Assembly (NCBI GenBank): GCA_964480345.1
Contig: CAYZNW010000003.1
Span: 45,493-109,492, forward strand
From: an uncultured Candidatus Saccharibacteria bacterium
GTDB taxonomy: Bacteria > Patescibacteriota > Dojkabacteria > SC72
DNA: 64,000 nt
Direction of reading: 5' to 3'
Shown here: positions 32,554 to 56,546 of the stretch, one piece after another
How the letters are laid out: every line of letters starts with the position of its first letter
How positions within the stretch are numbered: position 1 is the stretch's first letter
Made by a program: the position numbers and the translations under genes
Notes under the pieces: model-generated
What the model saw: only the letters and a program-made list of their open reading frames with translations
Database searches by the model: none
What the model was told of the DNA's origin: nothing

Positions 32554-34365
32554 ATGGCTATTGGTACATCTCTGCTTAAGTATTTGCAGTCTCAAAATTT
32601 AATTAGTGAGGATGATGCAAGGAAGGTCCTCTTGGAGAGAAGTAGATCGCAAAAAAGCGAAGAAGCTATTATTCGTGATTTAAATGTTGTTCCTGACATA
32701 GATATAGCGAAAGCTAAATCGGCAATATTTGGTATTCCTTTCATTGATATCTCTACTATGAATATTAATGAAAGTATCATAGCGGAAGTTCCAATCGACA
32801 ACTTAAATAAATACAAAGCTGTCCCATTTGAACGAGGTCAAGATTATGTAAAGATTGCTATGGAGGATCCTTTTGATATCCAAGCAACTCAGGTACTTGG
32901 TACAAAATATCCAAAAGGGACAAAGATAGAAGTATATATTACTACTGGAGATGCAGTTAGGAATATTTTAGACAGAAGGGTTGGTGATATGATGTCTTCC
33001 GAAGTAAGTGATGCGTTGGAAGACGCCGACGTTGGAGGCACAGTTACAGATATTACTGAAGATCCAAATCTGTTTGGAAGTACCAATATTTCAGCTGCAC
33101 CTGTTGCTAGAATTGTTAACTCAATTTTGCAGTATGCAGTTACCTCTAAGGCTTCTGATGTGCATGTTGAGCCTATGGAGAAGAAAGTGCGAGTCAGATT
33201 TAGAATTAACGGTGTAATGACAGAAAGATTATCTCTTCCAAAAAGTCTGAATGCAGCAGTTGTTTCTAGGATCAAAATTCTTTCAAATCTAAAAATTGAT
33301 GAAAGAAGAGTGCCACAGGATGGTCGTTTTCAGATTAAAGTTGCTAATACTAAAGTAGACTTAAGAATCTCTGTAATGCCAACTATTCATGGGGAGAAAG
33401 TAGTAATGAGGTTGCTAGAATCTGAAAACAACGATATTACTCTTGAGAGTACAGGTATTCGAGGAAATGCTTACAAAATTTTTGTAGATGCTCTTTCTGT
33501 TACAAACGGTATTGTTCTTGTTACTGGTCCTACAGGTAGTGGTAAAACAAGAACATTAGCTTGCTCATTGATTAAAGTAAATGATCCCACAGTAAATATC
33601 ATTTCATTGGAAAATCCTGTTGAGATTAGAATTCCTGGCGTAACTCAGGTACAGATAAACCCTGATGTAGGGCTTACATTTGCATATGGTCTACGATCTG
33701 TTTTACGACAAGACCCTGATATCGTAATGGTTGGAGAGATTCGAGACGAGGAAACAGCACAACTCGCTGTTCAAGCATCTCTTACTGGTCACCTAGTATT
33801 ATCTACTCTACACACGAACAGTGCAGCAGCAGCTATACCAAGACTTATGGATATGGGAATAGAACCGTATTTACTTGCTTCAACTATACGAGCTGTAGCA
33901 GGTCAAAGACTTCCTCGTACTATTTGCAAGGAGTGTATAGAAGCGTACCCTGCTACTCAAGAAGTCATAGAAAATATTAAGGAAGTGATGCAAGGAGCAG
34001 GCAACTTTGATTTAGTCACATATATTAACAGAGTGTTAGCATCTAGAAATATTGAAGGTTCTAAAGTTAGCCCTGCTATGAAAGCACCTGAAACAGGTCC
34101 TGATGGAAATGAGATAATATATCTGTATAAAGGGAAAGGTTGTGATAAGTGTGGAGGTTCGGGATATGCTGGGCGAACAGGTATATTTGAAGTTTTAGAT
34201 GTAACAGAAAATATTAGCAGAATGATTATGGAAAATGTTACCGCAGATGATATTGAGAAAGTAGCTATGAATCAAGGTATGATTACAATGATTCAAGATG
34301 GTTATCTAAAGGCATTAGAAGGTATTACTACCCTAGAAGAGGTTCTAAGGGTTTCAAAAGAATAA
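32554..34365 (+). CDS. pilB: type IV pilus assembly ATPase PilB (GspE family)
   Basis: Walker A 'VTGPTGSGKT'; tetracysteine 'CKEC...CDKCGGSG'; N-terminal T2SSE_N-like domain. Confidence 0.9.
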   Translation: MAIGTSLLKYLQSQNLISEDDARKVLLERSRSQKSEEAIIRDLNVVPDIDIAKAKSAIFGIPFIDISTMNINESIIAEVPIDNLNKYKAVPFERGQDYVKIAMEDPFDIQATQVLGTKYPKGTKIEVYITTGDAVRNILDRRVGDMMSSEVSDALEDADVGGTVTDITEDPNLFGSTNISAAPVARIVNSILQYAVTSKASDVHVEPMEKKVRVRFRINGVMTERLSLPKSLNAAVVSRIKILSNLKIDERRVPQDGRFQIKVANTKVDLRISVMPTIHGEKVVMRLLESENNDITLESTGIRGNAYKIFVDALSVTNGIVLVTGPTGSGKTRTLACSLIKVNDPTVNIISLENPVEIRIPGVTQVQINPDVGLTFAYGLRSVLRQDPDIVMVGEIRDEETAQLAVQASLTGHLVLSTLHTNSAAAAIPRLMDMGIEPYLLASTIRAVAGQRLPRTICKECIEAYPATQEVIENIKEVMQGAGNFDLVTYINRVLASRNIEGSKVSPAMKAPETGPDGNEIIYLYKGKGCDKCGGSGYAGRTGIFEVLDVTENISRMIMENVTADDIEKVAMNQGMITMIQDGYLKALEGITTLEEVLRVSKE

Positions 34366-34388
34366 ATTTTTGGTATAACTAAATAGAT

Positions 34389-36002
34389 ATGGAAGACACT
34401 GCCCAAAATACAATACAAAATAATGTGCCAGTACAGCCAGTAGCTCCTACTCCAGTTGTGAATAGTACGGTTACCTCTACTGCACCTCAGACTCCTGCTC
34501 CACAGCAAGTAGAAAGCAAAGGTGTAGAAGAAAGCCAAGATGAAAGACTAGCACAGTTAAGACAAAGTTTAAATGATTTACTAGATAATGAGAGTACAGC
34601 ACCACAGCAAAATGCTGCCCCTACTCCTCCTGTCGTTGAACAAAGTGTACCAGTACAACAATATTCGCAAACAGTAAATCCTCTTCCTGGTATTCAGACA
34701 AGTGTGAATAATGAAGAGAAAGATCTTTCAGAAGCAGTAAATTCTGTTACTGATGATATACCATCATCAACTCCACAACCTACAATTGCTCCTGATACGC
34801 CACTCAAAGAGGTAATCCCAGATGAGATTAAACCGAAAGCTATGATTAGAGATCCTAAGCCAAATAACCTTGCGACTCCTGTTGTATCTCCGGCTGACAG
34901 TGATGAGACAATATCTGGCAGCAATACTACTACAAACGCCAATTTAACAATAGAGAAACTTCTTGCTGAGGCTATAAATCGAAGTGCTTCAGACTTACAT
35001 ATATCAGTTGGATATCCACCAATCCTAAGACTAGATGGTGTTCTTGTTGATATGGAAGAGAAAGTCCTTGCTCCTGAAGATGTTGAGCAACTCATCTTCT
35101 CTGTATTAAGTGATGAGAAGAAAGAGCTACTTGAAGTTAATAGAGAGATAGATTTCGCCTATTTGTTTAATGGATCCGTCACTGCTCGATTTAGAGTAAA
35201 TGCATACTACTCTATGAAAAATCTCTCCGCAGCATTTAGACTAATTCCTTCAAGAGTACGAACAATAGAAGAGCTTATGCTTCCATCTATATACCACCAA
35301 TTAACCAAATTAAAACAGGGATTAGTTTTAGTCACAGGTCCAACAGGACACGGTAAAAGTACTACACTTGCTGCTATGCTTGAAGATATTAATAGAACAA
35401 GATTTAGCCATATTGTAACCATAGAAGATCCAGTAGAGTATGTATTTGAAGGAAAGAAAGCATTGATTGACCAAAGAGAAATGAACGATGATACTCTCTC
35501 TTGGAATATAGCACTGCGAAGCGCACTGCGACAAGATCCTGATGTTATTCTTGTAGGAGAAATGAGAGATTACGAAACAATTGCAGCAGCAATTACTCTT
35601 GCTGAAACAGGACATTTAGTATTTGCGACCTTACACACTAACAGTGCTGCTCAAACAGTAGATAGAATCATTGATGTATTCCCAGAAAACCAACAGCAAC
35701 AAATTCGAGCTCAAATAGCTAACACTTTAGAAGCAGTTGTAGCACAAAGATTAGTACCTCTTGATAAAGGAGGAAGAAGAGCAGTATCAGAAATCATGCT
35801 TAACAACTCTGCTATTGCAAACCTTATTCGTGAAGGTAAAACTCATCAAATAGATAATGTCATTAGAACAAGCTCTGATGTTGGTATGGTATATCTAGAG
35901 AAAGCTCTTGTAGGACTTGTACGAGAAGGAGTCATATCTGTACAGAAAGCACAAGAGTATGCAGTTCACCCAGAAGAAGTTTTAAGATTATTAAAAAATT
36001 AA
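34389..36002 (+). CDS. pilT: type IV pilus retraction ATPase PilT with a ~190-aa Pro/Gln/Thr-rich N-terminal extension
   Basis: 'LVTGPTGHGKSTT', 'GEMRDYETI', 'TGHLVFATLHTNSAAQTVDRI'. Confidence 0.85.
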   Translation: MEDTAQNTIQNNVPVQPVAPTPVVNSTVTSTAPQTPAPQQVESKGVEESQDERLAQLRQSLNDLLDNESTAPQQNAAPTPPVVEQSVPVQQYSQTVNPLPGIQTSVNNEEKDLSEAVNSVTDDIPSSTPQPTIAPDTPLKEVIPDEIKPKAMIRDPKPNNLATPVVSPADSDETISGSNTTTNANLTIEKLLAEAINRSASDLHISVGYPPILRLDGVLVDMEEKVLAPEDVEQLIFSVLSDEKKELLEVNREIDFAYLFNGSVTARFRVNAYYSMKNLSAAFRLIPSRVRTIEELMLPSIYHQLTKLKQGLVLVTGPTGHGKSTTLAAMLEDINRTRFSHIVTIEDPVEYVFEGKKALIDQREMNDDTLSWNIALRSALRQDPDVILVGEMRDYETIAAAITLAETGHLVFATLHTNSAAQTVDRIIDVFPENQQQQIRAQIANTLEAVVAQRLVPLDKGGRRAVSEIMLNNSAIANLIREGKTHQIDNVIRTSSDVGMVYLEKALVGLVREGVISVQKAQEYAVHPEEVLRLLKN

Positions 36003-36005
36003 TAA

Positions 36006-37217
36006 ATGAAGAAATTTAAATACTCAGCAAGAGATAACAGAGGACAAGTGATAGAAGGTGAATTAGAGGCAAAAGATATTGAATCAGTATCAGATATTTT
36101 GCATGACAAAGGATTAGTAACTGTCTCTGTCAAGGAAGGCTCAGGATTTGATTTACAGAAACTAAATGAGATAAATATTGGTGGTGTTCCGATGAAAGAT
36201 AAGGTGGTCTTCATGAGACAGATGTCAACAATGGTTGGTGCTGGTCTACCACTTACTAGAGCATTAGAGATTATGGTTCAACAAGCAAGTAATCCCAAAT
36301 TTAGAAAAGTATTACAAAGTGTTTTGCAATCTGTTGAGTCAGGTAAAACATTAGCGAACTCATTTAGAGAGCAGGAAGAGGTATTTGATAATATTACTGT
36401 TAATCTAATAGAAGCAGGAGAAGAAAGTGGTAACTTAGAAGTTATTTTAGAGAAGCTAGCTACTGAGCTTGAAGAAAGCCAATCTTTATCAAACAAAATT
36501 AGATCAGCGATGATATACCCAGCAATCATTCTTCTGGTTATCATAGGTGTAATCTTAATGATGATGTTTGTCTTAGTCCCATCTATGGCAGAGATATACA
36601 AAGATTTCGATGCAGAACTACCATGGACGACAAGATTCCTTATGAGTATGAGCTCCTTTTTCTTGAACTACTGGTGGGCTATATTAATAGTGATAATCTC
36701 ATTAGCATTAGGTATCAAATACTATCTTGGAACTGAAGCAGGAAGAGCTAACTTTGATAGATTGATATTAAAGGTTCCTGTTGTAGGTCCTATTATTTCT
36801 AAAATACAGCTTTCTCAATTTACTAGAATCTTAGCCTTACTATTAGGTAGTGGATTATCCATTATTAAGGCATTGGAATTAACAGCACAATCATTAAGTA
36901 ACTCAGAATATAGAGGTACAGTTTTAACAGCAAGAGATGAAGTCGAAAAGGGAGGAACATTGGCTCTCCCTATTGCTAGGAGTCCACACTTCCCTCTTCT
37001 AGTAAGTAGTATGATTTCAGTTGGAGAGGAAACAGGAGAGATAGATAATGTATTGAACAAAGTATCTGAATACTACAAAGAAGAGGTAGATACTGCAACA
37101 TCTAACATGTCTACGATTTTAGAGCCTCTGTTCTTAATTATCATGGGCTTAGCAATCGGATTTATTGCTCTAGCAGTGTACATGCCTATGTTCCAATTAT
37201 CCTCTGCTATTGGATAA
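36006..37217 (+). CDS. pilC: type IV pilus platform protein PilC (GspF family)
   Basis: Two GspF repeats; three TM segments. Confidence 0.9.
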   Translation: MKKFKYSARDNRGQVIEGELEAKDIESVSDILHDKGLVTVSVKEGSGFDLQKLNEINIGGVPMKDKVVFMRQMSTMVGAGLPLTRALEIMVQQASNPKFRKVLQSVLQSVESGKTLANSFREQEEVFDNITVNLIEAGEESGNLEVILEKLATELEESQSLSNKIRSAMIYPAIILLVIIGVILMMMFVLVPSMAEIYKDFDAELPWTTRFLMSMSSFFLNYWWAILIVIISLALGIKYYLGTEAGRANFDRLILKVPVVGPIISKIQLSQFTRILALLLGSGLSIIKALELTAQSLSNSEYRGTVLTARDEVEKGGTLALPIARSPHFPLLVSSMISVGEETGEIDNVLNKVSEYYKEEVDTATSNMSTILEPLFLIIMGLAIGFIALAVYMPMFQLSSAIG

Positions 37218-37288
37218 TTCATTGCTTGACATATCAATCAAAGTTCTGTAATTTATAAGTAATTAATTTGTTACTGTCTCTATTATTT

Positions 37289-37858
37289 ATGAAGAAGACT
37301 TCATACAAGGCATTCACATTGATTGAAATGCTTATCGTTATGGGTATCATTATCATTCTTATGGTAGTTGGTATAAGTGCGGCTAGGTTCGCTATTAACA
37401 GGGCAAATGATATTGCTCATCAAAATGCTGTTACTCAGATATTCCAAGCTTTAATGGCTTACTACACAGATAATAGACAGTATCCAGTTGCTCAAAATGT
37501 TCAGACATTGATAGGTACACCAGGAAATACCTCAGCTCCATTAAATAAATATATGAACGAGGGTTCATTTAAGGGTGGTACTCCAGCAAGTTATATATAT
37601 ATGGTAGATGATATACATCAGTCAGTTGCGGTTTGTGTTACATTAGGTGGTGTTAATGATGAAGCAGATAGGGGAATCTTCTGTGATGGTAATGCATTTG
37701 GAAGCCCTGAGCTAGAAACCCCAGTACAAGGTCCTTCCTTCACAAAGAAAGGAACTCTTGACTCTGAAGTGGATGAGCAAGTTTACGGGCTATTAAAAGG
37801 TTATACAGATGGTACATCTAACTGGTATGGAGATTCTACTGGTTGGACACAGAACTAA
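37289..37858 (+). CDS. type IV pilin (putative major pilin), prepilin leader MKKTSYKA|FTLIEML
   Basis: Class III signal with Glu+5 and a hydrophobic N-terminal helix; the ORF track starts at an upstream TTG (37268). Confidence 0.8.
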   Translation: MKKTSYKAFTLIEMLIVMGIIIILMVVGISAARFAINRANDIAHQNAVTQIFQALMAYYTDNRQYPVAQNVQTLIGTPGNTSAPLNKYMNEGSFKGGTPASYIYMVDDIHQSVAVCVTLGGVNDEADRGIFCDGNAFGSPELETPVQGPSFTKKGTLDSEVDEQVYGLLKGYTDGTSNWYGDSTGWTQN

Positions 37859-37883
37859 TAGCATGAGTGCTTAGTTGAAAATG

Positions 37884-37913
37884 AACCCCTCTTTTTAGAG
37901 GGGTTTTTCTTTT
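37884..37913 (+). terminator. rho-independent terminator
   Basis: CCCCTCT-TTTTAG-AGGGG followed by TTTTTCTTTT. Confidence 0.8.
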
Positions 37914-37935
37914 ATGTATATGATAATATATTCTC

Positions 37936-38697
37936 ATGTTTGTAATATATAGTTCTATATTTTTTCTAGGTGCATCTCTTGCCAGTTTTATTAATGCTAC
38001 TCTGTATAGGATTGATAACAAGAAAGAGTTTAAGAATAATTGGAGGACAATAGCCAGAAGAAACTCTTACTGTGAGAACTGTAAAAAAGAGCTTAATTGG
38101 ATAGAGCTATTCCCTATTGTTGGTTATTTAATATATGGAGGTAAATGTTCTAAATGTAGAAAATCTATAAATATCTATTATCCAATCTCTGAGTTTATAT
38201 TGGGAGTTTCTACTCTACTCTTCTATTTAAACAGTGTTCCTTTTTATCTTTATATAATTCTGATTTTTCTGTTTATACTTTCCTACTATGATTATATATA
38301 TAAAGCGGTACCGAAGAGTTTAGTTCATGTGTTTTTAGGTATATCGATTTTGTTTTTTATTGTTTTTAATTTCAGTTTAATTACTTTGGTAATAGTTCTA
38401 TCTTTAGCTATATCTCTATTGATTCTATCTGCTTTAATGAAAAAATCTTTTGGATTAGGAGATGTTTTAATATTAATAGGGCTTGGTATTGTAATGTCTT
38501 ACAAAAGCTTTTTAGTTATGTTTTGGATTGGAATATTACTAGCCCTACTCTGTTCTATAGTTTATTCTATATTGAAAAAAAGAGATTTGAGGAAGATAAA
38601 GATTCCTATGATTCCATTTTTTACGATTTCATTTCTGATTACGTGTATATATGGGTTACATATATATGATTTACTAACTAACTGGTTATCTACTTAG
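37936..38697 (+). CDS. pilD: prepilin peptidase (A24 family, PilD)
   Basis: N-terminal Zn ribbon 'CENC...CSKC'; polytopic; 'GLGDVLILIGLG' catalytic Asp region. Confidence 0.8.
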   Translation: MFVIYSSIFFLGASLASFINATLYRIDNKKEFKNNWRTIARRNSYCENCKKELNWIELFPIVGYLIYGGKCSKCRKSINIYYPISEFILGVSTLLFYLNSVPFYLYIILIFLFILSYYDYIYKAVPKSLVHVFLGISILFFIVFNFSLITLVIVLSLAISLLILSALMKKSFGLGDVLILIGLGIVMSYKSFLVMFWIGILLALLCSIVYSILKKRDLRKIKIPMIPFFTISFLITCIYGLHIYDLLTNWLST

Positions 38698-41600
38698 CCC
38701 ACCAGAACGGTTGTTTTACTCCACTATTAAACCATTTACCGTGTCTCATAATCTGGTTCATTGTAGGTCCATCTACTGTATAGTCTAACTGTACTTGATT
38801 AATTATTGGAGATACATCTGTATCTGTGCTTGTTAATGTTGCTTTGTACTGGAAGAATCTGTAGCTACTTCCTAGAGTTATTAGTTCTGGAGATACGGTT
38901 GGTAGATACTCTTCACTTGTTATGTTATCTATCCATATATTTCTTCCTCCGTATGTATTGTCTACTCTCATTGTTAGAAGGTTGGCTCTATCTAAATGGG
39001 TGTCTAATGTTCTTCCTTTGATTGGTAAATACTCTTTCTGCCATTTAAATACATTTGCTTTGGTAGTAAAGCCACCTGTTGGGAATGTAGATATACTCTC
39101 CCAATTTCTAACTGTGATAGCTCCTGTGTCTTTGTTTACACTTGTTACTACTCCCTGTGCTATGTACTCTCCACTACTGTTTTGTTCTCTTACTATGATC
39201 TTCTCTCCTGTATATATGTTACTTCCTTTGCTCTTCATTCCTTTTACTGTTCCATCTATTGTAAAGGAGGTATCAGAGGATGATGTTATGAGGTTAGAGC
39301 TATCTAATCCTGCTCCAAACTCTATTTCAATGTTATGTGTTCTTAATCCTACTTCATATGCTTGTCTTATTTCATCTGCACTTCTTGCTATGTTGGAGAT
39401 TCTAACTTCGTCTATTTCTCCATTAAACATTTCGACATAATTAGTAAATCCAATATATGGTAAATTAGAATACCCACTCAATCTTAAATTATATGTTGTG
39501 ACAGGAGAACCGTATGCTGTTGAGTTTGATGCTTTGAGTTCACCATTTAGATATATCTTTAAACCAGAAGAGTCTCCTGTAGCTACTACATGATACCATT
39601 TGTTGAGTTCTACAAGGTTAATTGGAGTTAATAACACATTAGTTCCTCCTCTATCCAGAAATTCTAAAGCACCTGTTGTATTTAATCTGATACGGTACCC
39701 AGAGTTATCACCTTTGTTTATAAAATTAGCAACATCATTAAACTCCTTTGGTTTTATCCACGCCTCTAGGGTGATAGCAGATGGATTTAATGAGGTTGAA
39801 TCAGGTATGACAATATAATCTGAGGTACCATTGAAGTTCCTAGCTCCTCCTATTCGACCGTTATTGGTATATGTAGTTCCTATTGACATTCCGTTGTTAT
39901 TGTATCCTGAACTATCTTTGATATATGCTCCATTCCCATCTATTTCATCTAAGTGCCATAGACCTACTGTATTTGCATCTGGTTGATAGTTTGCATATGC
40001 ACTCTCTCCTACTGTTGTAGATATGTTCTCTCCTACTTTATCACTAGCTATATATACAGGGAGAGAAATTTTTGATGATAGATTCTGTGTTGGTAATAGA
40101 TAATTTGAATATATTGATTTAGGTGAAGAGTTACGATCTACACCTTGAGTGTATTCAGCTAATATTTCGGATGCTGATAAAGCTCTATTGTATATTTTAA
40201 CTTCATCTATTAATCCATTGAATCCTGCTTCTCCAGGTATTTGCTTACTAATATTTAACTCTGTATTAGTTAAATTAACAGTGACCGCATATGTACTAAC
40301 TGCACTTGTAGAGACCTGAGCTCCATTTTTGTAGCAATATATATTAGTACCATCGTAGGAAAAAGTGACATGATTCCATTGAGAAATATCAAGATAAATA
40401 AAACATTGGGCTCCATTCCATATACCCGCAGATATATTACCATCGACATTGTACACTAAATGAATATTACTTGGTTCATACCCTCCAAGGCCAAGAATCC
40501 ATTGTCTCATGGTTGGTGAAGCGTATGGCTTAAGCCATAAATCTACTGTATGTACTTTATCTCCTGTTCCTAATCCACTATTTGGAACTGTTATATAATC
40601 ATTAGTTCCATTAAAACTTCTGCTTTTTCCTACTCGCCCATCTACTATTGTTGTTCCGGTAGCAGTACCTACCCTATCTCCTACCTTATCTGCAACTGTA
40701 GTGCCTGATAGCTCATCCATATCCCAATAGGAGATTAATCCTGTATTCTTTTTTTCAAAGATTGTTTTTAGAGAAGAGTATTCTTCAAAAATCTCTTGAG
40801 TGGAAAGTGTACGATTATATATTTTTGGTTCGTCTAATTGTCCGTTGAAAAACCCCGCTGATGCTATATTTGATCCTAGATAGGTATCTTTATCAGGTCC
40901 TAATGTAAATGTAGATGCAAATTCATTTTCAAGTACACCATCTATATATAATCGAGTCTTAGTTCCATCATTTGTTCCTGTTATTAAATGCCAATTACCA
41001 TCATTTATAGAGGATTTGCTTTCATGGGTAGCTGAGTTGTTACCAGATGTGTTATCAAAATCTATTAACACTTTACCAGTTGAAGAAAATGCGTTTATAT
41101 ATAGGAATAGTCCTCTTGATTGGAATAACATTGAATTTGATGTTGTAGTAGTTTTTACCCAAATACTAGCACTCATAGAAGTGAAAGAAGAAAAATCTAT
41201 TAATGGGACTTGTACATAATCGCTAGTCCCATTGAAGCTTCTACTATTATTTGCCTTACCTTGTGCTATTGTAGTTCCTGTAGCAGTTCCGTTATATGTA
41301 CCTACACTATCTTTAACTACACTTCCACTATTCTCATCCATCTTCCAATATGATACTAATCCATCATTTACAGTAGTCCCTATTCTATTTGATTTATATG
41401 GAAGTTCTTGATTATATAACCTCTCTATTTCATCAGATGTTTTAGCTGCGTTGTATATACGTACATCATCAACAATACCATTAAAACCTTTCCACCTATT
41501 AATGATAATATCGCCACTTGCTTGTCTTATTCCCATGTTACTATATGGTATGCTACTAACTTCTTTCCCATTAACATATAATCTAATAACACTATTTGGA

Positions 41601-46678: not shown

Positions 46679-46742
46679 ATGTCATATTGTTGAGAATCAC
46701 TTGAAATATTGATACAAGTAAGATAATCTAAAATGTAGAAAG

Positions 46743-47510: not shown

Positions 47511-47514
47511 TTTT

Positions 47515-48069
47515 ATGAAAATGAAAATAGAGACAAGTAAATATGAAGCAATGGGATTTGTTGAAGCTCTTGTAGCTATCATGGTAGTTGGTATATCAGC
47601 TGTAGTTCTAATGGAGATAGCTGCTAACACAATGCAAAATATGATACAGAATGAAAGAGTTGATCAAGTTACTCAGTACGCTGTAGAGGGGGCTGTAATG
47701 GCTCAGGTAATAGCTAGTAAAAACAAAGAAGCTGGAGGAGGGCTGTTTCCTACTGAGACAGGAGTAGAAAGATGTTATGCTATGGAGAAACTTCCTGATG
47801 GTGGATATGGGTTTGTAAAAGATGGAGAAAATGGATTTATAAGATTTTTAAATACTGACAGAAACCTATACAAAGAACAGGCTACTGTATACGATGAGAA
47901 AGGAGAAAAAACTGAATACTTTAGAATACTGTGTATTAACTTCCCTGCAGAATCAGATTACTCCTTCTTAATTGGACGAGTAGTTGTTGGACAAAGCACC
48001 TCTTCTGGAACTATAAGCAAGGGGAATCAGGTTAAAGATTACTCATATTATACCTCTATAAAATTGTAG
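47515..48069 (+). CDS. minor type IV pilin / pseudopilin
   Basis: 'G|FVEALVAIMVVGI'. Confidence 0.65.
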   Translation: MKMKIETSKYEAMGFVEALVAIMVVGISAVVLMEIAANTMQNMIQNERVDQVTQYAVEGAVMAQVIASKNKEAGGGLFPTETGVERCYAMEKLPDGGYGFVKDGENGFIRFLNTDRNLYKEQATVYDEKGEKTEYFRILCINFPAESDYSFLIGRVVVGQSTSSGTISKGNQVKDYSYYTSIKL

Positions 48070-48071
48070 AT

Positions 48072-48782
48072 ATGAAAGAAACAAATATTGAAGAACAAAA
48101 ATATGAAGCATTTAGTTTAGTAGAAATGTTATTAACTATTGTCATCATTGGGTTTGTAATGCTCATATCTGCTGTTACATTAACTACTTTAATTAAAGTC
48201 TCTACAGTCTCTAGTAATAAAACTAGAGTAAGAAATGAATCAGAGTATATATTGGAGTTAATTCGAAAAACAGTAAGAAACTCTAATCCATCAGATGTAT
48301 TTATTTTTAATTCACAAAATGCAAGAGTGTATGCGAGAAACAGTACTACTAATTCGATTACTATAGAAAGTACTGGAAGAGAAGATTTGAAAGCACTTTA
48401 CTCCTCACCTCTTGGAGAAAACGAGGTAGGGAATGAAATTCATTTTAGACCGTACGGCTACAATAGTTGGGTTTGTATAGGATTTTTCAAAGATAGGGAT
48501 TCGGAGAAAGGATATATAGTTAAAACAAATGTGGAAGATTTACTTAATAATCATGATTCATGTTTCCAAAGTGCACCTGGCAAATTCTTGATATCTTTAA
48601 ACTCAGACTATGTATCTGTGGATACTTTCTCTATAGCATATTCTAAAAGTTCAGATAACAATTATCTAATTCGTTTTGATATAGAAGCACAACCAGTTTT
48701 CTGGTATTTTGCTACTGGCGCTCCAGTTAGTAGGAAAGTTTTAAGACAGACAGTTGTGAAGACTGAAGGTTTGATATGGTAG
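48072..48782 (+). CDS. minor type IV pilin / pseudopilin
   Basis: 'A|FSLVEMLLTIVIIG'. Confidence 0.65.
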   Translation: MKETNIEEQKYEAFSLVEMLLTIVIIGFVMLISAVTLTTLIKVSTVSSNKTRVRNESEYILELIRKTVRNSNPSDVFIFNSQNARVYARNSTTNSITIESTGREDLKALYSSPLGENEVGNEIHFRPYGYNSWVCIGFFKDRDSEKGYIVKTNVEDLLNNHDSCFQSAPGKFLISLNSDYVSVDTFSIAYSKSSDNNYLIRFDIEAQPVFWYFATGAPVSRKVLRQTVVKTEGLIW

Positions 48783-48809
48783 TTACTATATGTTATCTTT
48801 ACTGTATAT

Positions 48810-49760
48810 ATGAATAACTGCTCTAAAAATCACCAAAACTTTCATGGATATTCTGCGCAGGCTATAGTAATAGCGTTGGTGGTCATAGTTGTCTCAGTTA
48901 TTATTGGTATGTCAGTAATATCGAGATCTTTGCGAGATAAAAAATCTGCAAATACTGAAAGATACTCCACTGAAGCTTTAGAGATCTCAGATTCAGTCAT
49001 AGATATCTTTTCTACTGTTGATACACAAACTCTGTTTGATAATATCGAATATGAAGATGCTAAGTTGAAGCGATTTAATGGTATAGCACAGCTTCAAGAG
49101 TATTTAAAAAGAATAGGAATAGAGAGTGATATATCCTCTCTATTTAAAAATTGTAGCGATAGCAATTCTGGAATAGTAGTATCTATGGATAAGGTAGATT
49201 CTGAAGAATTAGAATTGTTGGAATCAAACACATTTGGATATAGGCTTAATCCTTTGCAAGTGGCACAACAGTGTACTCTTTCTATTACTGCAGAACCTAG
49301 AGCAGCCTCTTCTGTTGGATTAATACTGCACAAGATATATGGAAAAGGATATCCTTCAGCTATAGAGTACAAGCGATATGATTTTGATGATGTAATAGCT
49401 TATTGTGTGTCTGAAGATACTACTTCATGTAAGAACAACTCTTTAGCAGATGGAGCTTGGAATATCTGGAACAAGGCAACTCCTATGAAAATAAATCTGA
49501 AAGAGGAGAAAGATGGTTTCGCTCTTGATGAAGTGAGAATCACTGCTATTGGGGGAGCATTAGGAATAGAGAACTCATTGAGTGTTGCAGGATGTGCAGG
49601 TGATATGGACTTAAAGATGGCAAAACTTACTGTAATGACTACATGTAATGGAGAATCAAGAGGTAAAGAGGTGTTAATACCAAGTCCTAATAATTTAAGT
49701 TACTCTACCCTCTTTGATTATGTCTTTTACAATAATCAAGGTTTTTTTCAACCATATTAA
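48810..49760 (+). CDS. large minor pilin lacking Glu+5 (GspK/PilX-like tip pseudopilin candidate)
   Basis: It has 'G|YSAQAIVIALVVIV' with Gln at +5. It is the largest of the quartet (316 aa). Confidence 0.5.
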   Translation: MNNCSKNHQNFHGYSAQAIVIALVVIVVSVIIGMSVISRSLRDKKSANTERYSTEALEISDSVIDIFSTVDTQTLFDNIEYEDAKLKRFNGIAQLQEYLKRIGIESDISSLFKNCSDSNSGIVVSMDKVDSEELELLESNTFGYRLNPLQVAQQCTLSITAEPRAASSVGLILHKIYGKGYPSAIEYKRYDFDDVIAYCVSEDTTSCKNNSLADGAWNIWNKATPMKINLKEEKDGFALDEVRITAIGGALGIENSLSVAGCAGDMDLKMAKLTVMTTCNGESRGKEVLIPSPNNLSYSTLFDYVFYNNQGFFQPY

Positions 49761-49778
49761 TTTATTTATTAAAAATTT

Positions 49779-50177
49779 ATGGATAATTCAAACAAAACAA
49801 TATTAATCATAGAAGATGAGCAAGATCTTTTAGATTCATATAAAGAGCTAATCAGTATGGGGGGATATTCGGTAGCTACCTCCATAGATGGATATCACGG
49901 TCTTGATTACTTAGCTACAAATATTGGTCATGTAGATCTGGTTCTTTTAGATCTGATGATGCCTGGTGTAGATGGTCTAGAAGTATTACGAGCCATTAAA
50001 GCTGATAAGGATAAGTATGGTGATATGCCAATCATCGTTTTAACAAATATGTCTAGTGAACTAGTCATAAAAGAAGCTTTTGATCTAGGGGCATCTTCAT
50101 ACTTGGTTAAATCAGACTTAGATTATGATGGTTTACTTAAGGAGCTTAATAAATATTTAGGAAGCAGTGATAAATAA
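49779..50177 (+). CDS. single-domain CheY-like response regulator receiver (PilH-like)
   Basis: 'ILIIEDE', 'LVLLDLMMPGVDG', 'YLVKS'. Confidence 0.8.
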   Translation: MDNSNKTILIIEDEQDLLDSYKELISMGGYSVATSIDGYHGLDYLATNIGHVDLVLLDLMMPGVDGLEVLRAIKADKDKYGDMPIIVLTNMSSELVIKEAFDLGASSYLVKSDLDYDGLLKELNKYLGSSDK

Positions 50178-51658
50178 TGAGTAAATATTACTTCTCAAAA
50201 GAATCAAAGATAAAGAGAATTCTACTTCGAATATTCATAGTCGTATTAGTAATTTCTTTAGGATATGGTGCATACTACTACTTTTCAAATATTGATAAGG
50301 ATATAACAACAAGATATTTAAATGGTACTAAATATGAATTCCTTAACAGATTTTATGAGAGTAATAATGGATACACCTATACATATACTGCCAAAGGGAT
50401 AGTTTACAATGCAAAAAAGAGTGATTCAGAGGTGACTTTTGATATTAATGCTTGGGATCCAAAAACAAAAGAGAGCTTGTACTACTCCAATATATCTCTC
50501 GGAAATGTAAAATCAGGTGCCCTATCAATAGAGGATGCTTTCTATGATTTCAAGCCAGTAAAGATACAGTTTGATTTCGTAAAGAAGAAATTGGTTAATG
50601 TAGAAGTTACTGATTTAGTTTTAGAACAGAAAGAGTATCAGTATGTAAATGACAGCATATTAAGGTTCCTTACAAAAGGATATTCAGCAAATATTAATGA
50701 GGAAGGCTCCACATATTCTGCAGATTTACCAGTAAATATATTTGATAGAAATGGGCAAATTTCTCTCTTGCCATTGTATGTTAACGGTGATGCTTTAACT
50801 GCTTTGTATGGCATAGCAGTATTAACAAAAGATACTGAAGTAGATACCACCTTTAATCCTGATACATACATTGAAGCGTCTGTCTCTCGAATTAGTAATA
50901 GTATGAAAGCAAACGGTATTCTGTCTACTATGATTCCTGATGGATGCTCTTTGCTTTTGAAAATAGAGCAAGAAGGAGTATACTCTGACTCTCAAATTAA
51001 TAAATTACGAAATATTTTTTGTTCTCAAGGAGAATTTACTTCCATATTTTCAAGAAAAGAAGAAAGTAAGTGGAAGGATTTACTCACTTTTGTAGGTTCA
51101 GAGAAATTAGATACTGCTTACAAACCAGATGTCGAATTCGTAGGACTTATGTCTCTGTCTGATGCCTACTCTATGGCGACTTTGTACGGTAAGACTCTTA
51201 CTGAGGCGGAGGTTACAAATGTAGAGAACAGAATAGTAAATTCAGTGATATCATCTGGACGAGATTTAACGACATACGCTGTTCCGTACAAAACCTTATG
51301 TTCGCTAGCCTACTCTTTAACCTCTGTACCTAACTACAGTAATATGGAGAAGTATAATTCGGTAGTTGTTGGATTAGAAGATACAGTAAGCTCATATTCT
51401 AATAACGAGGAGCTACTGAAACTGTTAGAGAAAGACACAAAATCTACTTTGATGTGTGCACAGGCTTTTGCAAATAGTGAAGATAAAAGAGTTAGAGATC
51501 TTTTTAGTTCTACTTTAATAAAGATGTTCTATTTAAATATGTATGATAAAGAGGGACATACTGGTCTTTGGTCAGTATTCCCTGAGTATATGATGATGAG
51601 TATTGAAGATAGTGTAAGGTATTTTAACTTGTTAAAGGTAGAGTATGCGAAAAAGTAG
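50177..51658 (+). CDS. N-terminally anchored extracytoplasmic hypothetical protein (493 aa)
   Basis: Single N-terminal TM; no recognised motifs. Confidence 0.45.
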   Translation: MSKYYFSKESKIKRILLRIFIVVLVISLGYGAYYYFSNIDKDITTRYLNGTKYEFLNRFYESNNGYTYTYTAKGIVYNAKKSDSEVTFDINAWDPKTKESLYYSNISLGNVKSGALSIEDAFYDFKPVKIQFDFVKKKLVNVEVTDLVLEQKEYQYVNDSILRFLTKGYSANINEEGSTYSADLPVNIFDRNGQISLLPLYVNGDALTALYGIAVLTKDTEVDTTFNPDTYIEASVSRISNSMKANGILSTMIPDGCSLLLKIEQEGVYSDSQINKLRNIFCSQGEFTSIFSRKEESKWKDLLTFVGSEKLDTAYKPDVEFVGLMSLSDAYSMATLYGKTLTEAEVTNVENRIVNSVISSGRDLTTYAVPYKTLCSLAYSLTSVPNYSNMEKYNSVVVGLEDTVSSYSNNEELLKLLEKDTKSTLMCAQAFANSEDKRVRDLFSSTLIKMFYLNMYDKEGHTGLWSVFPEYMMMSIEDSVRYFNLLKVEYAKK

Positions 51659-54077
51659 ATATATTTTAATAACAATAGCATCATCGTTAATACTACTCTC
51701 TCTCTCTTCAAGATTCGCTCAGTCTGCATGGGAACCTATTGGAACTAATGCAGATGGAAGCATACTGTATCAAAATGAAGAAGGAGGATGGTGTTCAGGT
51801 CCTGCAGGAGGTACAGAACCAGAGTGCCACCATGAAAGTGAACCACCATGCCAAACTCATGCTTGTACTCTTCCTGCCTGTCCTGATGATACTGTCCTAT
51901 ACAATACAGGATATTCTACACAATATACTGTTAGCTGTGATAAAGGTTGTGGAGAAGTAGAAAGAAAATCGTGCTATGAAAGACCCACAACATGTAATCC
52001 AGTATATGAGAATTGCGAAGATTCATACATATACAGTTTACAATCAGAAGTACAGTTTCAACCATTACAAACAACAAACAAAATGGGGTATACATCTACT
52101 ACATACTCAGGTTTAGAAATAAATAACCCTGTAGGAGTAGAAGCTAGATATTGGAGTACAGTTGATAACAGTAAACTTGAAGCTATATATTTCTGGATGG
52201 CGAAAGAAGGAAGTGGAGCTCCTGGGGTAACAGGAAGTAGTGTAGAAGAGATGATATGCACAGAATTTCAGATACGCCCCCAACCAAATGGAGAATGGGA
52301 ACATGTATGTACAAAAACTGCAAATATATCGCCAACAAAAACAGTAGGTATTGAGTGGTTGTATGACAATCAAGTATCAGCAGGAAATTCAATATCAAAT
52401 GGAAGTTGGGGGTTCATGGTTAGAAAAGTAAACGGTAATTGGTCAGATGTATATGTACCTCTTGTGACAAATAGCAGAACGTATTGGGCAAAGATAACAA
52501 ATGTGGGAACTACATTTACACTCCACTCTAAATCAGGTAGACCATTAGTAAATATCTCTGATTTAAAAATATCACAAACAGACAAAGTAATTTCAAATTT
52601 TAGAATAACCTTTCTAAATGAAAATTCAGGAGTATCTAACTATGAAAAAGTATCAGAGGGAGTATATAACGCATATACGATGGTAAACGATGAATTTGGA
52701 TTTACACCTTGGGATAACTACACAAGTCAGGAAATCAAAAACAAATTAGGGTACAAACCAAATCAGATTAGACTTAGTAATCAATGGAAAAAAGGACCAA
52801 GCTGGGGAGTAGATCTTACTAGACCTGCAATTAGCAGGTTACAATCGATAATCCCCTCCTCTACTAGATTAATGATAGATTGGGAAGGTCAAGATTTGGA
52901 AAGCTCTATCTCCTACTCTGTTGGTAATGTATTTAGATTAAAAGATGCATTAGTAAAAAACAGTCCTGTGATCTATCCTGCAGGAAGTGGTAGAACATTT
53001 ATACTAAATTTTCAATCAGAAAGTGATCTTGTAGGAAAGATAAATGGAAGTAATATCCTATGGCAGAAGGAAAACAGTAAATCAGGAGCAGAAGATATTG
53101 ATTTAGTAGATAACCGAGGAGGGTATATGGATTTCTATGTAACTGTATTTGATAAAGGTGGAAATCATCTTACACAAAATGTTCGTTTCAAATTAGGAGA
53201 GTGGATTCAGACAAAAGGAGGATTCTTCTACAGTAAAAGCGGAGCATATTTAGATACGCGTCGTATTACTCCAGGAATCTGGATAGAGAGAAATCTGTTT
53301 GATAAATATGGATTTAAAGAAAATCAGGTAGATTTAGGAACTGAGTTAATATCTGGAAATGTTTCCAGACAATCAGCTTTATCAGTTGTAAACTATCTAA
53401 ATCAAAATGGCGTATTTAGAGCTATCAATTATGCCGGTCATCGCAAATCAGATGTGTATTATGAATACTTAGAGAAAATGCAAAAATTAGATGAAAAGAA
53501 ATATGAGAAAATTACTGTTGGTAATCTATCAGGTAATTTAACTGACAGCTGTTTTGATAAAGAGAAATGTAAAAACTCCATAGTAGTGAATACTGTAAAC
53601 AGTGATTTAACAGTAAACTCAAACTTCACATGTGATACTAGAGCAGTTATGCTAGTTAATGGAAATATCTATATAAATCCAGATATTACTAATTTAGATA
53701 ACCGATCAGCTTGTGTATTTATTGCAAAAGAGAATATATATATCAGAGAGGGAGCACATAAATCTGGAGCAAATATAGGTTTTGATGTCGTAGAAGGATA
53801 CTTCTTAGCTAATGGGACAATTAAAATAGAGAAAGAAAACAAACCATCTTCTGATAGAACAGATGGCTTATTCATAGAGGGAGGAATACTCTCATTTGGA
53901 ACTGATCCTGCAGAAAATGCTAGTATTATGCTAAAAAGAGAATTACATTTGGCCGATAGACATCCATATCCAGTATTAAATATAATTCATCATCCAAAAT
54001 ATGGTAAACTAATGCAAGATTTGTTTGAAGGTGATAGATTAGTATTTAAGACAGAGGTTGGTTTTAAACAATTCTAG
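51645..54077 (+). CDS. secreted 810-aa protein with Cys-rich N-terminal module
   Basis: Signal peptide; ~14 Cys in the first ~120 mature residues. Confidence 0.5.
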   Translation: MRKSRYILITIASSLILLSLSSRFAQSAWEPIGTNADGSILYQNEEGGWCSGPAGGTEPECHHESEPPCQTHACTLPACPDDTVLYNTGYSTQYTVSCDKGCGEVERKSCYERPTTCNPVYENCEDSYIYSLQSEVQFQPLQTTNKMGYTSTTYSGLEINNPVGVEARYWSTVDNSKLEAIYFWMAKEGSGAPGVTGSSVEEMICTEFQIRPQPNGEWEHVCTKTANISPTKTVGIEWLYDNQVSAGNSISNGSWGFMVRKVNGNWSDVYVPLVTNSRTYWAKITNVGTTFTLHSKSGRPLVNISDLKISQTDKVISNFRITFLNENSGVSNYEKVSEGVYNAYTMVNDEFGFTPWDNYTSQEIKNKLGYKPNQIRLSNQWKKGPSWGVDLTRPAISRLQSIIPSSTRLMIDWEGQDLESSISYSVGNVFRLKDALVKNSPVIYPAGSGRTFILNFQSESDLVGKINGSNILWQKENSKSGAEDIDLVDNRGGYMDFYVTVFDKGGNHLTQNVRFKLGEWIQTKGGFFYSKSGAYLDTRRITPGIWIERNLFDKYGFKENQVDLGTELISGNVSRQSALSVVNYLNQNGVFRAINYAGHRKSDVYYEYLEKMQKLDEKKYEKITVGNLSGNLTDSCFDKEKCKNSIVVNTVNSDLTVNSNFTCDTRAVMLVNGNIYINPDITNLDNRSACVFIAKENIYIREGAHKSGANIGFDVVEGYFLANGTIKIEKENKPSSDRTDGLFIEGGILSFGTDPAENASIMLKRELHLADRHPYPVLNIIHHPKYGKLMQDLFEGDRLVFKTEVGFKQF

Positions 54078-54121
54078 TCTCTGATATTATATATAAATAT
54101 AAATTGAAGAATTTGTAGAAC

Positions 54122-55153
54122 ATGGCTAAGCTGCCCGATCATGTTGGAATAGATTTTGGAACTCACTCAGTAAAAGCTGTAGAGTTGGTAAACATCTCTT
54201 CGAATACACCAAAGTTATCAAATTTAGGATCCCAATTAACTCCCAAAGGAGTTATAAACAGCGAGAACAAAGCTGATCAAGAAAAACTAGCTGGAGTATT
54301 GAAAAAACTTTATGAATCCTCAGGATTAAAGAATAAAGCTGTAGTTATGGCACTACCAGAGTTCTCTGTGTTCACTAGATTCTTAGAATTCCCAGGAGTA
54401 AAACAGGAAGAGTTAAAAGATGTTGTATACTATGAAGCCAAGCAGTATATCCCTATGCCACTTACAGAAGTTCAGTTAAGCTATGTACCAATAGGATTTA
54501 ATGCTGAAAGAAATGCTCCTAAAGTATTGATAGTAGCAGCACCTAGAAAAATAATAGATATATATATTAATGTAGCTGTCTTTGCAGGACTGGATCTGGT
54601 AGCAATGGAAACTGAATCAGTGGCAATGGGAAGAGCTATGTTTAAATCTACAGGCAAAAAGAACTTAGTAATGCTTGATTTCGGAGCTAACAGTACAGAT
54701 ATGAGTATTTTAGCAGATGGTAATCTTGTATTCTCACAAAGTATAGCAATCGGTTCTGACTCATTAACCCAAGCGATTATTAATAAATTCAACTTCGAAT
54801 ACCAAAGAGCTGAAGAGTTTAAACGGAACTACGGAGTAGTTGAAAATGTCCTTGAAGGTAAAATCTATGCAGTACTCTCCCCCATATTAGAATCAATCAT
54901 GATAGAAGTAAGACGAGGAGTTGAATTCTACAAATCTAGAACTTTAGCCTCAGCTCCCTCAGAGTACATATTAAACGGAGATGGTGCTTTACTACCAGGA
55001 ATCAAAGAGTTCATAGCTAAAAGTTTAGGCGCTACTGTTTCCGTAGCTGTTCCATGGAACAATATATTAGTAGAAGATAAATTCAAAGATATCGTTGCAA
55101 AAGGAGGCCCATCCTACTCTGTTGCAATAGGACTTGCATTAAAAGATGAATAA
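54122..55153 (+). CDS. pilM: type IV pilus assembly protein PilM (actin-like ATPase fold)
   Basis: 'HVGIDFGTHSVKAVEL' N-terminal phosphate-1 motif. Confidence 0.75.
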   Translation: MAKLPDHVGIDFGTHSVKAVELVNISSNTPKLSNLGSQLTPKGVINSENKADQEKLAGVLKKLYESSGLKNKAVVMALPEFSVFTRFLEFPGVKQEELKDVVYYEAKQYIPMPLTEVQLSYVPIGFNAERNAPKVLIVAAPRKIIDIYINVAVFAGLDLVAMETESVAMGRAMFKSTGKKNLVMLDFGANSTDMSILADGNLVFSQSIAIGSDSLTQAIINKFNFEYQRAEEFKRNYGVVENVLEGKIYAVLSPILESIMIEVRRGVEFYKSRTLASAPSEYILNGDGALLPGIKEFIAKSLGATVSVAVPWNNILVEDKFKDIVAKGGPSYSVAIGLALKDE

Positions 55154-55820
55154 CCAACAAAATCAAACACAACCAAATAACCCTGTTCCTAAAACTCCAG
55201 AAGAAACACAGGCTAATTTGAAGAAGGAACAATTCATCGATACAAACATGTTAGATGGCTCCTCTGGTATTAACCTTGTACCATTGATGAGCAAAGAAGA
55301 AATTGTCAAAGAGGAGAAGAAACAGAAGTTAAATATGTCCTCTATCATTATTATCATTATCCTTATTGTCATAACCATCATTGTAGTAGGATTCAATGTA
55401 ATATCAAAAATGGAATTAAATTCTGCTAAATCAAAATTAACAGAATTAGAAAATGAAGCAAACACATACTCTGAGAAAATAAAAAGTAATGATGAAATTC
55501 TTGACAGAGTATTTCTGTACAAAGAGATTGAAAGTAAACAGTACTCTTCTAAATCAGTAGTTGAATATATTACAGATATAGCAAGGAAGAGTGGCAATGT
55601 AAGCTTAATATCATTTGATTTCGTAGGAAAAGAGTCAATTGCATTTGAGGGAAATTCTGAAAACTTAGAAACAGCAGCAAAGTTTTGGTATCTTCTAAAC
55701 AGTGATACTAATTTTGAGAATATGAGCATGGAAACTATTTCCAAAACCCCTTCTGAAATTAGATTCTCTTTTGAAGGGAAAATATTAGTAGATAGATTTT
55801 TAAACTCTGAGAAGATATAA
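55146..55820 (+). CDS. PilN-like bitopic pilus assembly protein
   Basis: Cytoplasmic N-terminus, single TM, then coiled coil; overlaps the pilM stop. Confidence 0.55.
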   Translation: MNNQQNQTQPNNPVPKTPEETQANLKKEQFIDTNMLDGSSGINLVPLMSKEEIVKEEKKQKLNMSSIIIIIILIVITIIVVGFNVISKMELNSAKSKLTELENEANTYSEKIKSNDEILDRVFLYKEIESKQYSSKSVVEYITDIARKSGNVSLISFDFVGKESIAFEGNSENLETAAKFWYLLNSDTNFENMSMETISKTPSEIRFSFEGKILVDRFLNSEKI

Positions 55821-55823
55821 GAC

Positions 55824-56546
55824 ATGGCAGAATCAGTACCAATACAAACACAACAAGCAACAACAAAGGAAACATTAAAACAAGCTAATAACGCTAAAAT
55901 TAAACCTAAGTTAAAACTGACTGATTTAATAATACCGATAACTTTAGGTTTAGTTTCTATAATAATTAGTGTTTTTGTATTTGTACCTATGGTTGAGTCA
56001 GCATTTACATCAAGGACAGAATTAAAAGATGTAAAATCTAAACAGACTCAGATAACTAATCTTAACAGAGCAGTAAGTTCCATAGATGATGGAACTATGC
56101 AGATTGATCTATTGAATGCGAAAAAAGTTATTCCTAAATCTTTAACAGTCTCTAGCTTTATATACTATGTAGATGAATTAGCTAAACAGCTGAATTTAAC
56201 ATCAAAAACCTTATCTGCAGGAGATATTCAAATTACTACTGGAGGTCGAGATGAGAAGAAAAACTACTCTGGAGTTAGTGGTCCATTAGCATACTCTGGT
56301 ACAAGAGAAGATGTACTTAACTTCTTAGATAGCCTTTATGCTGCTTCCCCATATATTATCTCGGCAGACAATATATCATTAGAGCAGTCTTCCATGACAG
56401 CTGAGTGGAAAGTTGCACTTAACATAACAGGATATTATGTTTTAGAAAAAGATTACAGAGTAAATCTATACCTTCCGTTTAGTGTCTATACAAACAAACC
56501 AGAAGTAATTAAAACCTTTACTGAAAAAGCTGAAAAGTTGAAATAG
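55824..56546 (+). CDS. PilO-like bitopic pilus assembly protein
   Basis: Single TM 'LIIPITLGLVSIIISVFVFVPMV' followed by a coiled coil; position after pilM/N. Confidence 0.5.
   Translation: MAESVPIQTQQATTKETLKQANNAKIKPKLKLTDLIIPITLGLVSIIISVFVFVPMVESAFTSRTELKDVKSKQTQITNLNRAVSSIDDGTMQIDLLNAKKVIPKSLTVSSFIYYVDELAKQLNLTSKTLSAGDIQITTGGRDEKKNYSGVSGPLAYSGTREDVLNFLDSLYAASPYIISADNISLEQSSMTAEWKVALNITGYYVLEKDYRVNLYLPFSVYTNKPEVIKTFTEKAEKLK

Follow-up and report, generated by a model that had tools for sequence, protein, structure and literature searches.

A probable secretin-less type IVa-like pilus operon with lineage-specific accessory genes in Candidatus Dojkabacteria

The 64-kb stretch of contig CAYZNW010000003.1 that we analysed (assembly GCA_964480345.1; hereafter the window) carries, between positions 32554 and 56546, a gene cluster which we read as a chromosomal type IVa-like pilus operon of Candidatus Dojkabacteria (WS6), a lineage of the candidate phyla radiation (CPR, Patescibacteria). 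The pilus would be of monoderm style and without a secretin, and we give this reading a probability of roughly 85%. It is carried by the identities of the genes, the intactness of their catalytic motifs, the conserved synteny and the distribution of the protein families, all of which were observed directly. An initial annotation of the window had proposed a secretin-less pilus with a PilT motor in a reduced genome, and the verified core of genes, their conserved order and the small genomes of the relatives support this proposal. A secretin-less, PilT-equipped pilus is already established for the CPR; what is new is the set of lineage-specific extra genes within the cluster.

Results

Layout of the locus

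The open reading frame (ORF) map, made over 30-58.5 kb of the window, shows 15 closely packed genes on the + strand (Table 1). Their run is broken only once, by a 7,989-bp ORF on the minus strand, and apart from this giant gene the spacing between successive genes is -14 to 77 bp. All genes listed by the initial annotation (pilB, pilT, pilC, a pilin gene, pilD, four minor pilin genes, a CheY-like receiver gene and pilM, pilN and pilO) were recovered on the + strand and identified by hidden Markov model, motif or fold. The named genes are thus real; the list had passed over about 12 kb of the interval, namely the minus-strand giant with its LamG domains and two operon genes that code for proteins of 493 and 810 aa. 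The share of the window given to the pilus, 37%, had to be lowered to ~25% (a cluster of ~16 kb), because the 8-kb giant, which is clade-specific, had been counted. The flanking genes (gyrA, gyrB and holB upstream; rnc, nusB and clpB downstream) are housekeeping genes; the locus is chromosomal and not a mobile island.

Table 1. Genes and other features of the pilus locus (positions within the window; TM, transmembrane segment).
Feature	Length	Position	Strand	Identification and properties
pilB, extension ATPase	603 aa	32554..34365	+	T2SSE 1.3e-124; MshEN 5.8e-12
pilT, retraction ATPase	537 aa	34389..36002	+	TIGR01420 pilT_fam
pilC, inner-membrane platform	403 aa	36006..37217	+	T2SSF in two stretches, 3.9e-63
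Major prepilin	189 aa from ATG	37289..37858	+	N_methyl 2.6e-5; weak T2SSG 1e-3
Terminator-like hairpin	10-bp stem + T-run	37883..37906	+	consensus scan
pilD, prepilin peptidase / N-methyltransferase	253 aa	37936..38697	+	A24_N_bact 1.7e-21; Peptidase_A24
Membrane-anchored surface protein (giant)	2,662 aa	38690..46678	-	N-terminal TM, glycine-rich domain, seven LamG/ConA-like domains
Minor pilin 1	255 aa	46743..47510	+	N_methyl 3.4e-7; leader ...KYEG/YTLIEM; position kept in all loci
Minor pilin 2	184 aa	47515..48069	+	leader ...KYEA/MGFVEAL; class-III-like, Glu5 by reading
Minor pilin 3	236 aa	48072..48782	+	N_methyl 1.3e-4; leader ...KYEA/FSLVEM; conserved
Minor pilin 4	316 aa	48810..49760	+	hydrophobic N-terminal helix after HG/YSAQAIV; without Glu5
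Single-domain CheY-like receiver	132 aa	49779..50177	+	Response_reg 8.8e-22
Variable-slot protein	493 aa	50177..51658	+	N-terminal TM anchor, extracytoplasmic body
Sec-exported accessory protein	810 aa	51645..54077	+	signal peptide, Cys-rich N-terminus, FN3/Ig-like sandwiches, C-terminal beta-helix
pilM, actin-like cytoplasmic alignment protein	343 aa	54122..55153	+	PilM_2 1.2e-52, full length
pilN	224 aa	55146..55820	+	cytoplasmic INLVP motif, TM, coiled coil, C-terminal domain
pilO	240 aa	55824..56546	+	identified by structure

Motor ATPases, pilins and alignment proteins

Degenerate ATPase motifs had been named in the initial annotation as a possible objection, and none were found: both PilB and PilT keep the Walker A and B motifs as well as the Asp and His boxes. 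These read GPTGSGKT, LRQDPDIVMVGEIRD, ENPVE and TGHLVLSTLH in PilB, which also has two CxxC pairs (a tetracysteine), and GPTGHGKS, LRQDPDVILVGEMRD, EDPVE and TGHLVFATLH in PilT, where the PilT-type AIANLIRE motif is present too. PilT scores 448.6 bits with the TIGR01420 pilT_fam model (PilT/PilU; cutoff 319.1), positions 2-343 of the model being aligned to residues 188-530. The residues before this match (1-187; 34389-34949) form an N-terminal extension rich in Pro, Thr, Val, Gln and Ser, which is apparently disordered. The upstream frame is open in most relatives as well, so that the Walker A motif lies at residue 253-346 instead of about 130; the sequence of the extension is not conserved. 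The ComGA model gives PilB 252 bits, below its cutoff of 300 and well under the scores of the GspE and PilB models. In PilD the CxxC...CxxC and GLGD motifs were read in the sequence.

For the major prepilin we use the 189-aa form adopted by gene callers; the mechanical ORF begins with a TTG at 37268. Its leader has 8 residues (MKKTSYKA/FTLIEM) and is of class III type with Glu5 present, and its N-terminus gives weak matches to ComGC/GspG-type models. Directly 3' of the gene, before pilD, stands the strong hairpin GAACCCCTCT-TTTT-AGAGGGGTTT with its T-run; the consensus scan returned 3 sites in all against 0.8 expected. Its place right after the 189-aa pilin fits an abundantly expressed major subunit and suggests attenuation, by which a putative attenuator or terminator would keep pilin in large excess over the machinery. 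Minor pilins 2 and 4 have no Pfam match; the former has a positional ortholog in all loci (28-77% identity) and the latter keeps its position at 26-84% identity. From its size and the missing Glu5, minor pilin 4 may be a GspK/PilX-like subunit. Canonical prepilin leaders were confined to the pilus locus in a window-wide pattern search.

The PilM-PilN-PilO alignment subcomplex is represented by all three proteins, and the start of pilN overlaps the stop of pilM by 8 bp. The Pfam PilN model scores below its cutoff of 22.8 bits on the window protein (15.5 bits, E 0.018); it matches weakly in 5/5 orthologs, with a best E of 2.6e-4. The protein carries a G-I-N-L-V-P motif, whose G41, I42, N43, L44 and P46 are invariant in five orthologs, and which we take to correspond to the INLLP motif by which PilN binds PilM. 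When the PilN-like and PilO-like proteins were searched against the PDB as profiles of their orthologs, only noise came back.

Secretin and envelope genes

The initial annotation had noted that no PilQ is present, and indeed no secretin was found in the window: secretin families had 0 matches among ORFs of at least 110 aa (at least 90 aa downstream of the locus), and the PilP family had no match among window ORFs. The sortase, LCP and Lgt-like genes, cited in the initial annotation as further signs of a monoderm envelope, fared unequally. The ORF at 2620-3825 matches LytR_C (2.3e-9), which favours an LCP gene, while its LytR_cpsA_psr match stays below threshold (E 0.049). The sortase is represented by a divergent, sortase-like ORF at 24364-25002, recognised by weak matches below cutoff only. 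Searches of the window with Pfam, NCBIfam and a motif recovered no Lgt. VanY is present in the window; together with LytR_C and the weak sortase-like ORF it is compatible with a walled, monoderm-type envelope, short of proving one.

The sortase-like ORF (minus strand, 212 aa) matches four sortase classes and the generic family below cutoff, at best with E 7.2e-4 and 19 bits, and shows a TM anchor followed by AAHR...LYTC...R. When it was compared with the PDB by phmmer, only spurious matches to designed repeats appeared. Regex searches over the whole window found no LPXTG, canonical TLxTC or Lgt-type motif.

Conservation of the operon

The synteny was followed in gene tables of relatives and by tblastn across the full set of 36 related loci (L-numbers), for which 10-kb flanks were available. 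The order pilB-pilT-pilC-pilA-pilD-(second pilin)-minor pilins 1 to 4-cheY-[slot]-810 family (one to three genes)-pilM-pilN-pilO is constant in ~25 Dojkabacteria loci, in which rnc, nusB and clpB follow pilO on the other strand. Protein identities across the loci run from ~90% down to ~25%, and an order kept over such a range (25-90%) implies purifying selection. Conservation is highest for pilM (68-92%), pilC, pilT and cheY, while the 810 family and the minor pilins are the least conserved (25-85%). In one locus (L003) pilM is separated from the 810-family gene by a histidyl-tRNA synthetase gene.

When GTDB species representatives were scanned with the 810-aa family, 26 loci were obtained. 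Those with a specific name are all Dojkabacteria or candidate division WS6, and the others bear the generic labels 'uncultured Candidatus Saccharibacteria bacterium' or 'uncultured bacterium'. Named homologs of both the 810-aa and the PilO-like protein are almost exclusively from Candidatus Dojkabacteria. Several of the related genomes are single contigs of 0.72-0.76 Mb, which supports the 'reduced genome' of the initial annotation.

Receiver, slot protein and 810-aa protein

Three further genes stand between the minor pilins and pilM. The first codes for the CheY-like receiver, the residues of which are intact (acidic pocket E12-D13, phospho-acceptor D58, T89 and K111) and which is among the best-conserved products of the operon, with 59-94% identity across loci. 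No cognate kinase for it was found in the 64-kb window.

The second gene occupies a slot that is filled in nearly all loci by an ORF of 146-594 aa, usually with an N-terminal TM. The 493-aa protein found here has no Pfam or NCBIfam match and a single cluster of homologs, with 36% identity; the 810-aa ortholog from the same genome has 78%. This hyper-variable protein, which evolves much more quickly than the genes around it, would be exposed on the cell surface and may be under diversifying selection there.

The third product, the 810-aa protein, has a Sec signal (...SSRFAQS/AWEP) and 10 cysteines in residues 50-124, and it contains no Pfam or NCBIfam domain. Its family, with representatives clustered at 50% identity, comprised 17 clusters in a word-indexed search; an exhaustive profile search raised this to 551 representatives at E<=1e-3, 217 of them at E<=1e-30. 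Every member with visible context is placed between cheY/slot and pilM. Among 156 members that start with Met, prepilin leaders are absent, and the N-terminus is hydrophobic in 114. Of 146 distant members, 93-100% align to the C-terminal 55% of the profile and 28-80% to its N-terminal part, ahead of which they carry up to 678 additional residues. The family extends across the Dojkabacteria; the window holds one copy, and deeper lineages have 2-3 tandem paralogs (L009, L017-L019, L021-L026 and L030-L036). In the model, the fold matches are FN3/Ig sandwiches and a DUF3494-type beta-helix, which describes the architecture only. That the protein might be a cryptic secretin was also considered and discarded, since the top fold matches include no secretin, the copy number varies and the N-terminus is variable.

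The LamG giant

The giant gene is convergent with pilD, which it overlaps by 8 bp, and a gap of 64 bp separates it from the gene of minor pilin 1; it splits the operon into two units and is separately transcribed. Its product, probably a lectin-like adhesin of the cell surface, matches Laminin_G_3 in seven stretches (2.8e-164) and Gly_rich_2 (3.1e-22); Gly makes up 36% of residues 401-660. We rejected it as a core part of the pilus, as it lies on the opposite strand and is missing from most related operons. At the position between pilD and the minor pilin genes it was not found in L002, L003, L004, L009-L012 and deeper relatives, where pilin genes come straight after pilD. The N-terminus occurs at the same spot in the closest relative (L005/L013), with 66% identity over 293 aligned residues, and in none of the other Dojkabacteria operons examined. 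Since the gene is missing in most relatives and shared with this one, it is a clade-specific insertion. About a third of the interval first noted is therefore a clade-specific LamG surface-protein insertion and no pilus machinery.

Other genes of the window

The whole window has a G+C content of ~30-40% and gives long ORFs with the standard genetic code; scans for tRNA, tmRNA and Rfam families found none in its 64 kb. An 825-aa protein (3867-6344, +) matches TrwB/VirD4-type coupling proteins and HerA-like ATPases (TrwB_AAD_bind 1.9e-7), and it possibly belongs to the monoderm-type type IV secretion system that a recent preprint reportedly describes for Patescibacteria (bioRxiv 10.1101/2025.01.22.634366). 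Two ORFs of 590 aa (13980-15752, -) and 1,206 aa (16521-20141, +) have no Pfam or NCBIfam match, the latter being followed by a family-2 glycosyltransferase gene. In a XerC/D-type recombinase of 444 aa (11671-13005, +) the 172-position catalytic model is spread over 226 residues, and the topoisomerase domain of GyrA (26461-29199, -) is matched in two pieces apart from each other; in each case this points to internal insertions. Insertions within conserved proteins are often reported in CPR genomes.

Discussion

From the parts described above we infer piliation, retraction of the fibre, the roles of the receiver and of the accessory proteins and the type of envelope, and the system could be pictured as follows. 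Five prepilins (one major and four minor) would enter the membrane and be cut by PilD after the Ala or Gly at position -1. The platform would consist of PilC, the PilN/PilO pair and cytoplasmic PilM, which would bind to the INLVP tail of PilN. A hexamer of PilB would extend the fibre and a hexamer of PilT would retract it, with the four minor pilins priming assembly and capping the fibre, which would pass the wall and the surface layer without an outer-membrane channel. By analogy with PilG/PilH, the CheY receiver probably shifts the balance between extending and retracting the fibre. By homology with the pili of Saccharibacteria, the fibre most likely serves attachment to surfaces or host cells and twitching, and possibly also DNA uptake. 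In Saccharibacteria the work with inhibitors, mutants and transposon sequencing ties type IV pili (T4P) to twitching, host binding and essentiality. In Nanosynbacter lyticus TM7x, twitching is attributed to the pilT-containing pilus of locus one, whose parts list is the same, whereas host binding is mediated by a second saccharibacterial pilus (PMC12206443).

The composition of the locus is that by which secretin-less CPR pili are defined (Meheust et al., 2019; Grossman, 2025), with pilB/T/C/D, pilM/N/O, pilins and no pilQ. Meheust et al. (2019) reported that CPR bacteria co-localise PilB, PilT, PilC, PilM, PilN, PilO and PilD and have no PilQ, which fits a non-Gram-negative envelope (PMC6744442), and a 2026 review describes the T4P core set as a hallmark of the phylum and mentions ComEC for most metagenome-assembled genomes (PMC13293708). 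The machinery is that of a type IVa system: PilB, PilT and PilC together with PilD, PilM/N/O and major and minor pilins. The definitions of diderm type IVa pili, of ComG and of type II secretion systems (T2SS) do not fit the locus, and that of the PilY1 family does not fit the 810-aa protein.

T4P-1 of TM7x is likewise a single locus in an ultrasmall CPR genome, with pilB/T/C/D, pilM/N/O and some five pilins and without PilQ, and its pilX-type pilin also lacks a canonical PilD site. However, TM7x belongs to a different class (Saccharimonadia and not Dojkabacteria), and the Dojkabacteria PilT differs by its disordered N-terminal extension of ~190 aa. The CheY receiver, the variable membrane protein and the one to three proteins of ~800 aa do not appear in the TM7x gene list as far as it is described, and they set the Dojkabacteria locus apart. 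The T4P of the monoderms Clostridium perfringens and Streptococcus sanguinis are also secretin-less and consist of PilB/T/C/D, PilM/N/O and several pilins; Gram-positive T4P were reportedly treated by Melville and Craig in 2013. Unlike in these Gram-positive systems, no modular, adhesin-grafted pilins were seen here, the candidate adhesin is separate and Sec-exported, and a receiver gene is part of the operon. Compared with the type IVa pili of Pseudomonas and Myxococcus (pilMNOPQ, fimU-pilVWXY1E, PilG/PilH), the Dojkabacteria locus is without PilP, PilQ, TsaP and FimV; its receiver gene is a member of the structural operon, and no Chp-type kinase is encoded close by.

Several observations weigh against the interpretation given above. 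The secretin search covers the window, and genes for a secretin, for ComEC/ComEA or for a histidine kinase that partners the receiver could lie elsewhere in the genome. PilB scores equally with the PilB model (TIGR02538, 537.9 bits) and with the GspE model (539 bits), each time under the NCBIfam equivalog cutoff of the model, and the Peptidase_A24 match of PilD (28.3 bits) is barely above its cutoff of 26.5. The model of the 810-aa protein is of moderate quality, with a predicted local distance difference test score (pLDDT) of 68.9, and Foldseek matched it in the PDB to generic, Ig/FN3 adhesin-like folds at template-modelling scores (TM) of ~0.1. Neither a PilY1-type propeller nor a vWA domain was found in this protein by Pfam, NCBIfam or fold. 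Finally, the function would be transferred from Saccharibacteria, which are a different class, and Dojkabacteria are known here from their genes alone.

The genes that set the locus apart leave room for more than one interpretation. The 810-aa protein may be a pilus-associated adhesin that resembles PilY1 in its logic and not by homology. Three groups of observations point in this direction: the Sec signal without a prepilin leader and the place beside the minor pilins, the FN3/Ig and beta-helix folds that are typical of adhesins, and the combination of a C-terminal module that is conserved, an N-terminus that varies and the occurrence of tandem paralogs. We would tentatively go one step further and suggest, as a possibility well short of even odds, that the CheY receiver, the slot protein and the 810-type protein together make up a host-recognition (tip adhesin) and control unit, a non-homologous stand-in for PilY1 and PilG/PilH. 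The main rival view of these two proteins would be that the 810-aa and 493-aa products are not adhesins and form a collar or conduit through the wall and S-layer, in the functional place of PilP/PilQ/TsaP. Their genes lie directly upstream of pilM/N/O, where diderm operons run on into pilP-pilQ, both proteins are exported or membrane-anchored, and their positions are kept in all loci examined. However, the copy number of the 810 family varies and its evolution is fast, and because of this we consider a collar unlikely and rate it below an adhesin.

It could also be argued that the cluster is mainly a competence (Com-type) pseudopilus that feeds DNA to a nucleotide-auxotrophic cell and is neither adhesive nor motile. 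The major pilin lends itself to such a view, as its leader ends in Ala(-1) and its N-terminus is matched best, though weakly, by ComGE/ComGC/GspG models; Ala at -1 occurs in the prepilin leaders of Gram-positive Com pilins. Firmicutes ComG is likewise monoderm and secretin-less, with a pilin N-terminus of ComGC/ComGE type (here at a weak score). However, classical ComG systems, whose ATPase is of ComGA type, lack PilT as well as PilM/N/O, whereas in the Dojkabacteria locus PilT passes its curated model and PilM/N/O are intact; moreover, no comEC or comEA was found in the window. The literature speaks on both sides. ComEC is general in the CPR and DNA uptake has been proposed as a role of T4P (PMC6744442; PMC13293708), and Saccharibacteria are naturally competent (PMC10187176). 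On the other hand, T4P genes are essential in Saccharibacteria while comEC is not, being needed only for transformation (PMC10187176), thus these pili have an essential role other than competence. A cluster devoted mainly to competence therefore seems to us quite improbable.

A T2SS-like pseudopilus without an external fibre, exporting for instance the 810-aa protein or the LamG giant, would share with the locus the near-equal PilB and GspE scores, the set of four minor pilins with a Glu5-less, GspK-like member, PilO-like folds common to GspM/GspL and the big exported proteins encoded in and beside the operon, yet it is hardly credible given an intact PilT, the full-length PilM_2 match, the ordinary Sec-type N-termini of the exported proteins and the lack of a secretin in the window. 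T2SS are without PilT and need the GspD secretin. Pili have also been seen on other CPR cells (PMC13293708).

Our literature search found no description of a Dojkabacteria pilus operon or of the cheY-slot-810 module, and no cultivated Dojkabacteria. The locus now gives these bacteria a list of fully verified pilus parts and an operon map that is conserved across the class, and it brings to light a sizeable family, that of the 810-aa protein, which has no Pfam or NCBIfam model and lies inside the pilus operon wherever its context is visible. If the module with the receiver and the slot protein does act in host recognition, its variable parts would set which host cells the Dojkabacteria episymbionts seize. 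The 810-aa family and its fast-evolving neighbour in the slot are concrete candidates for determinants of host specificity.

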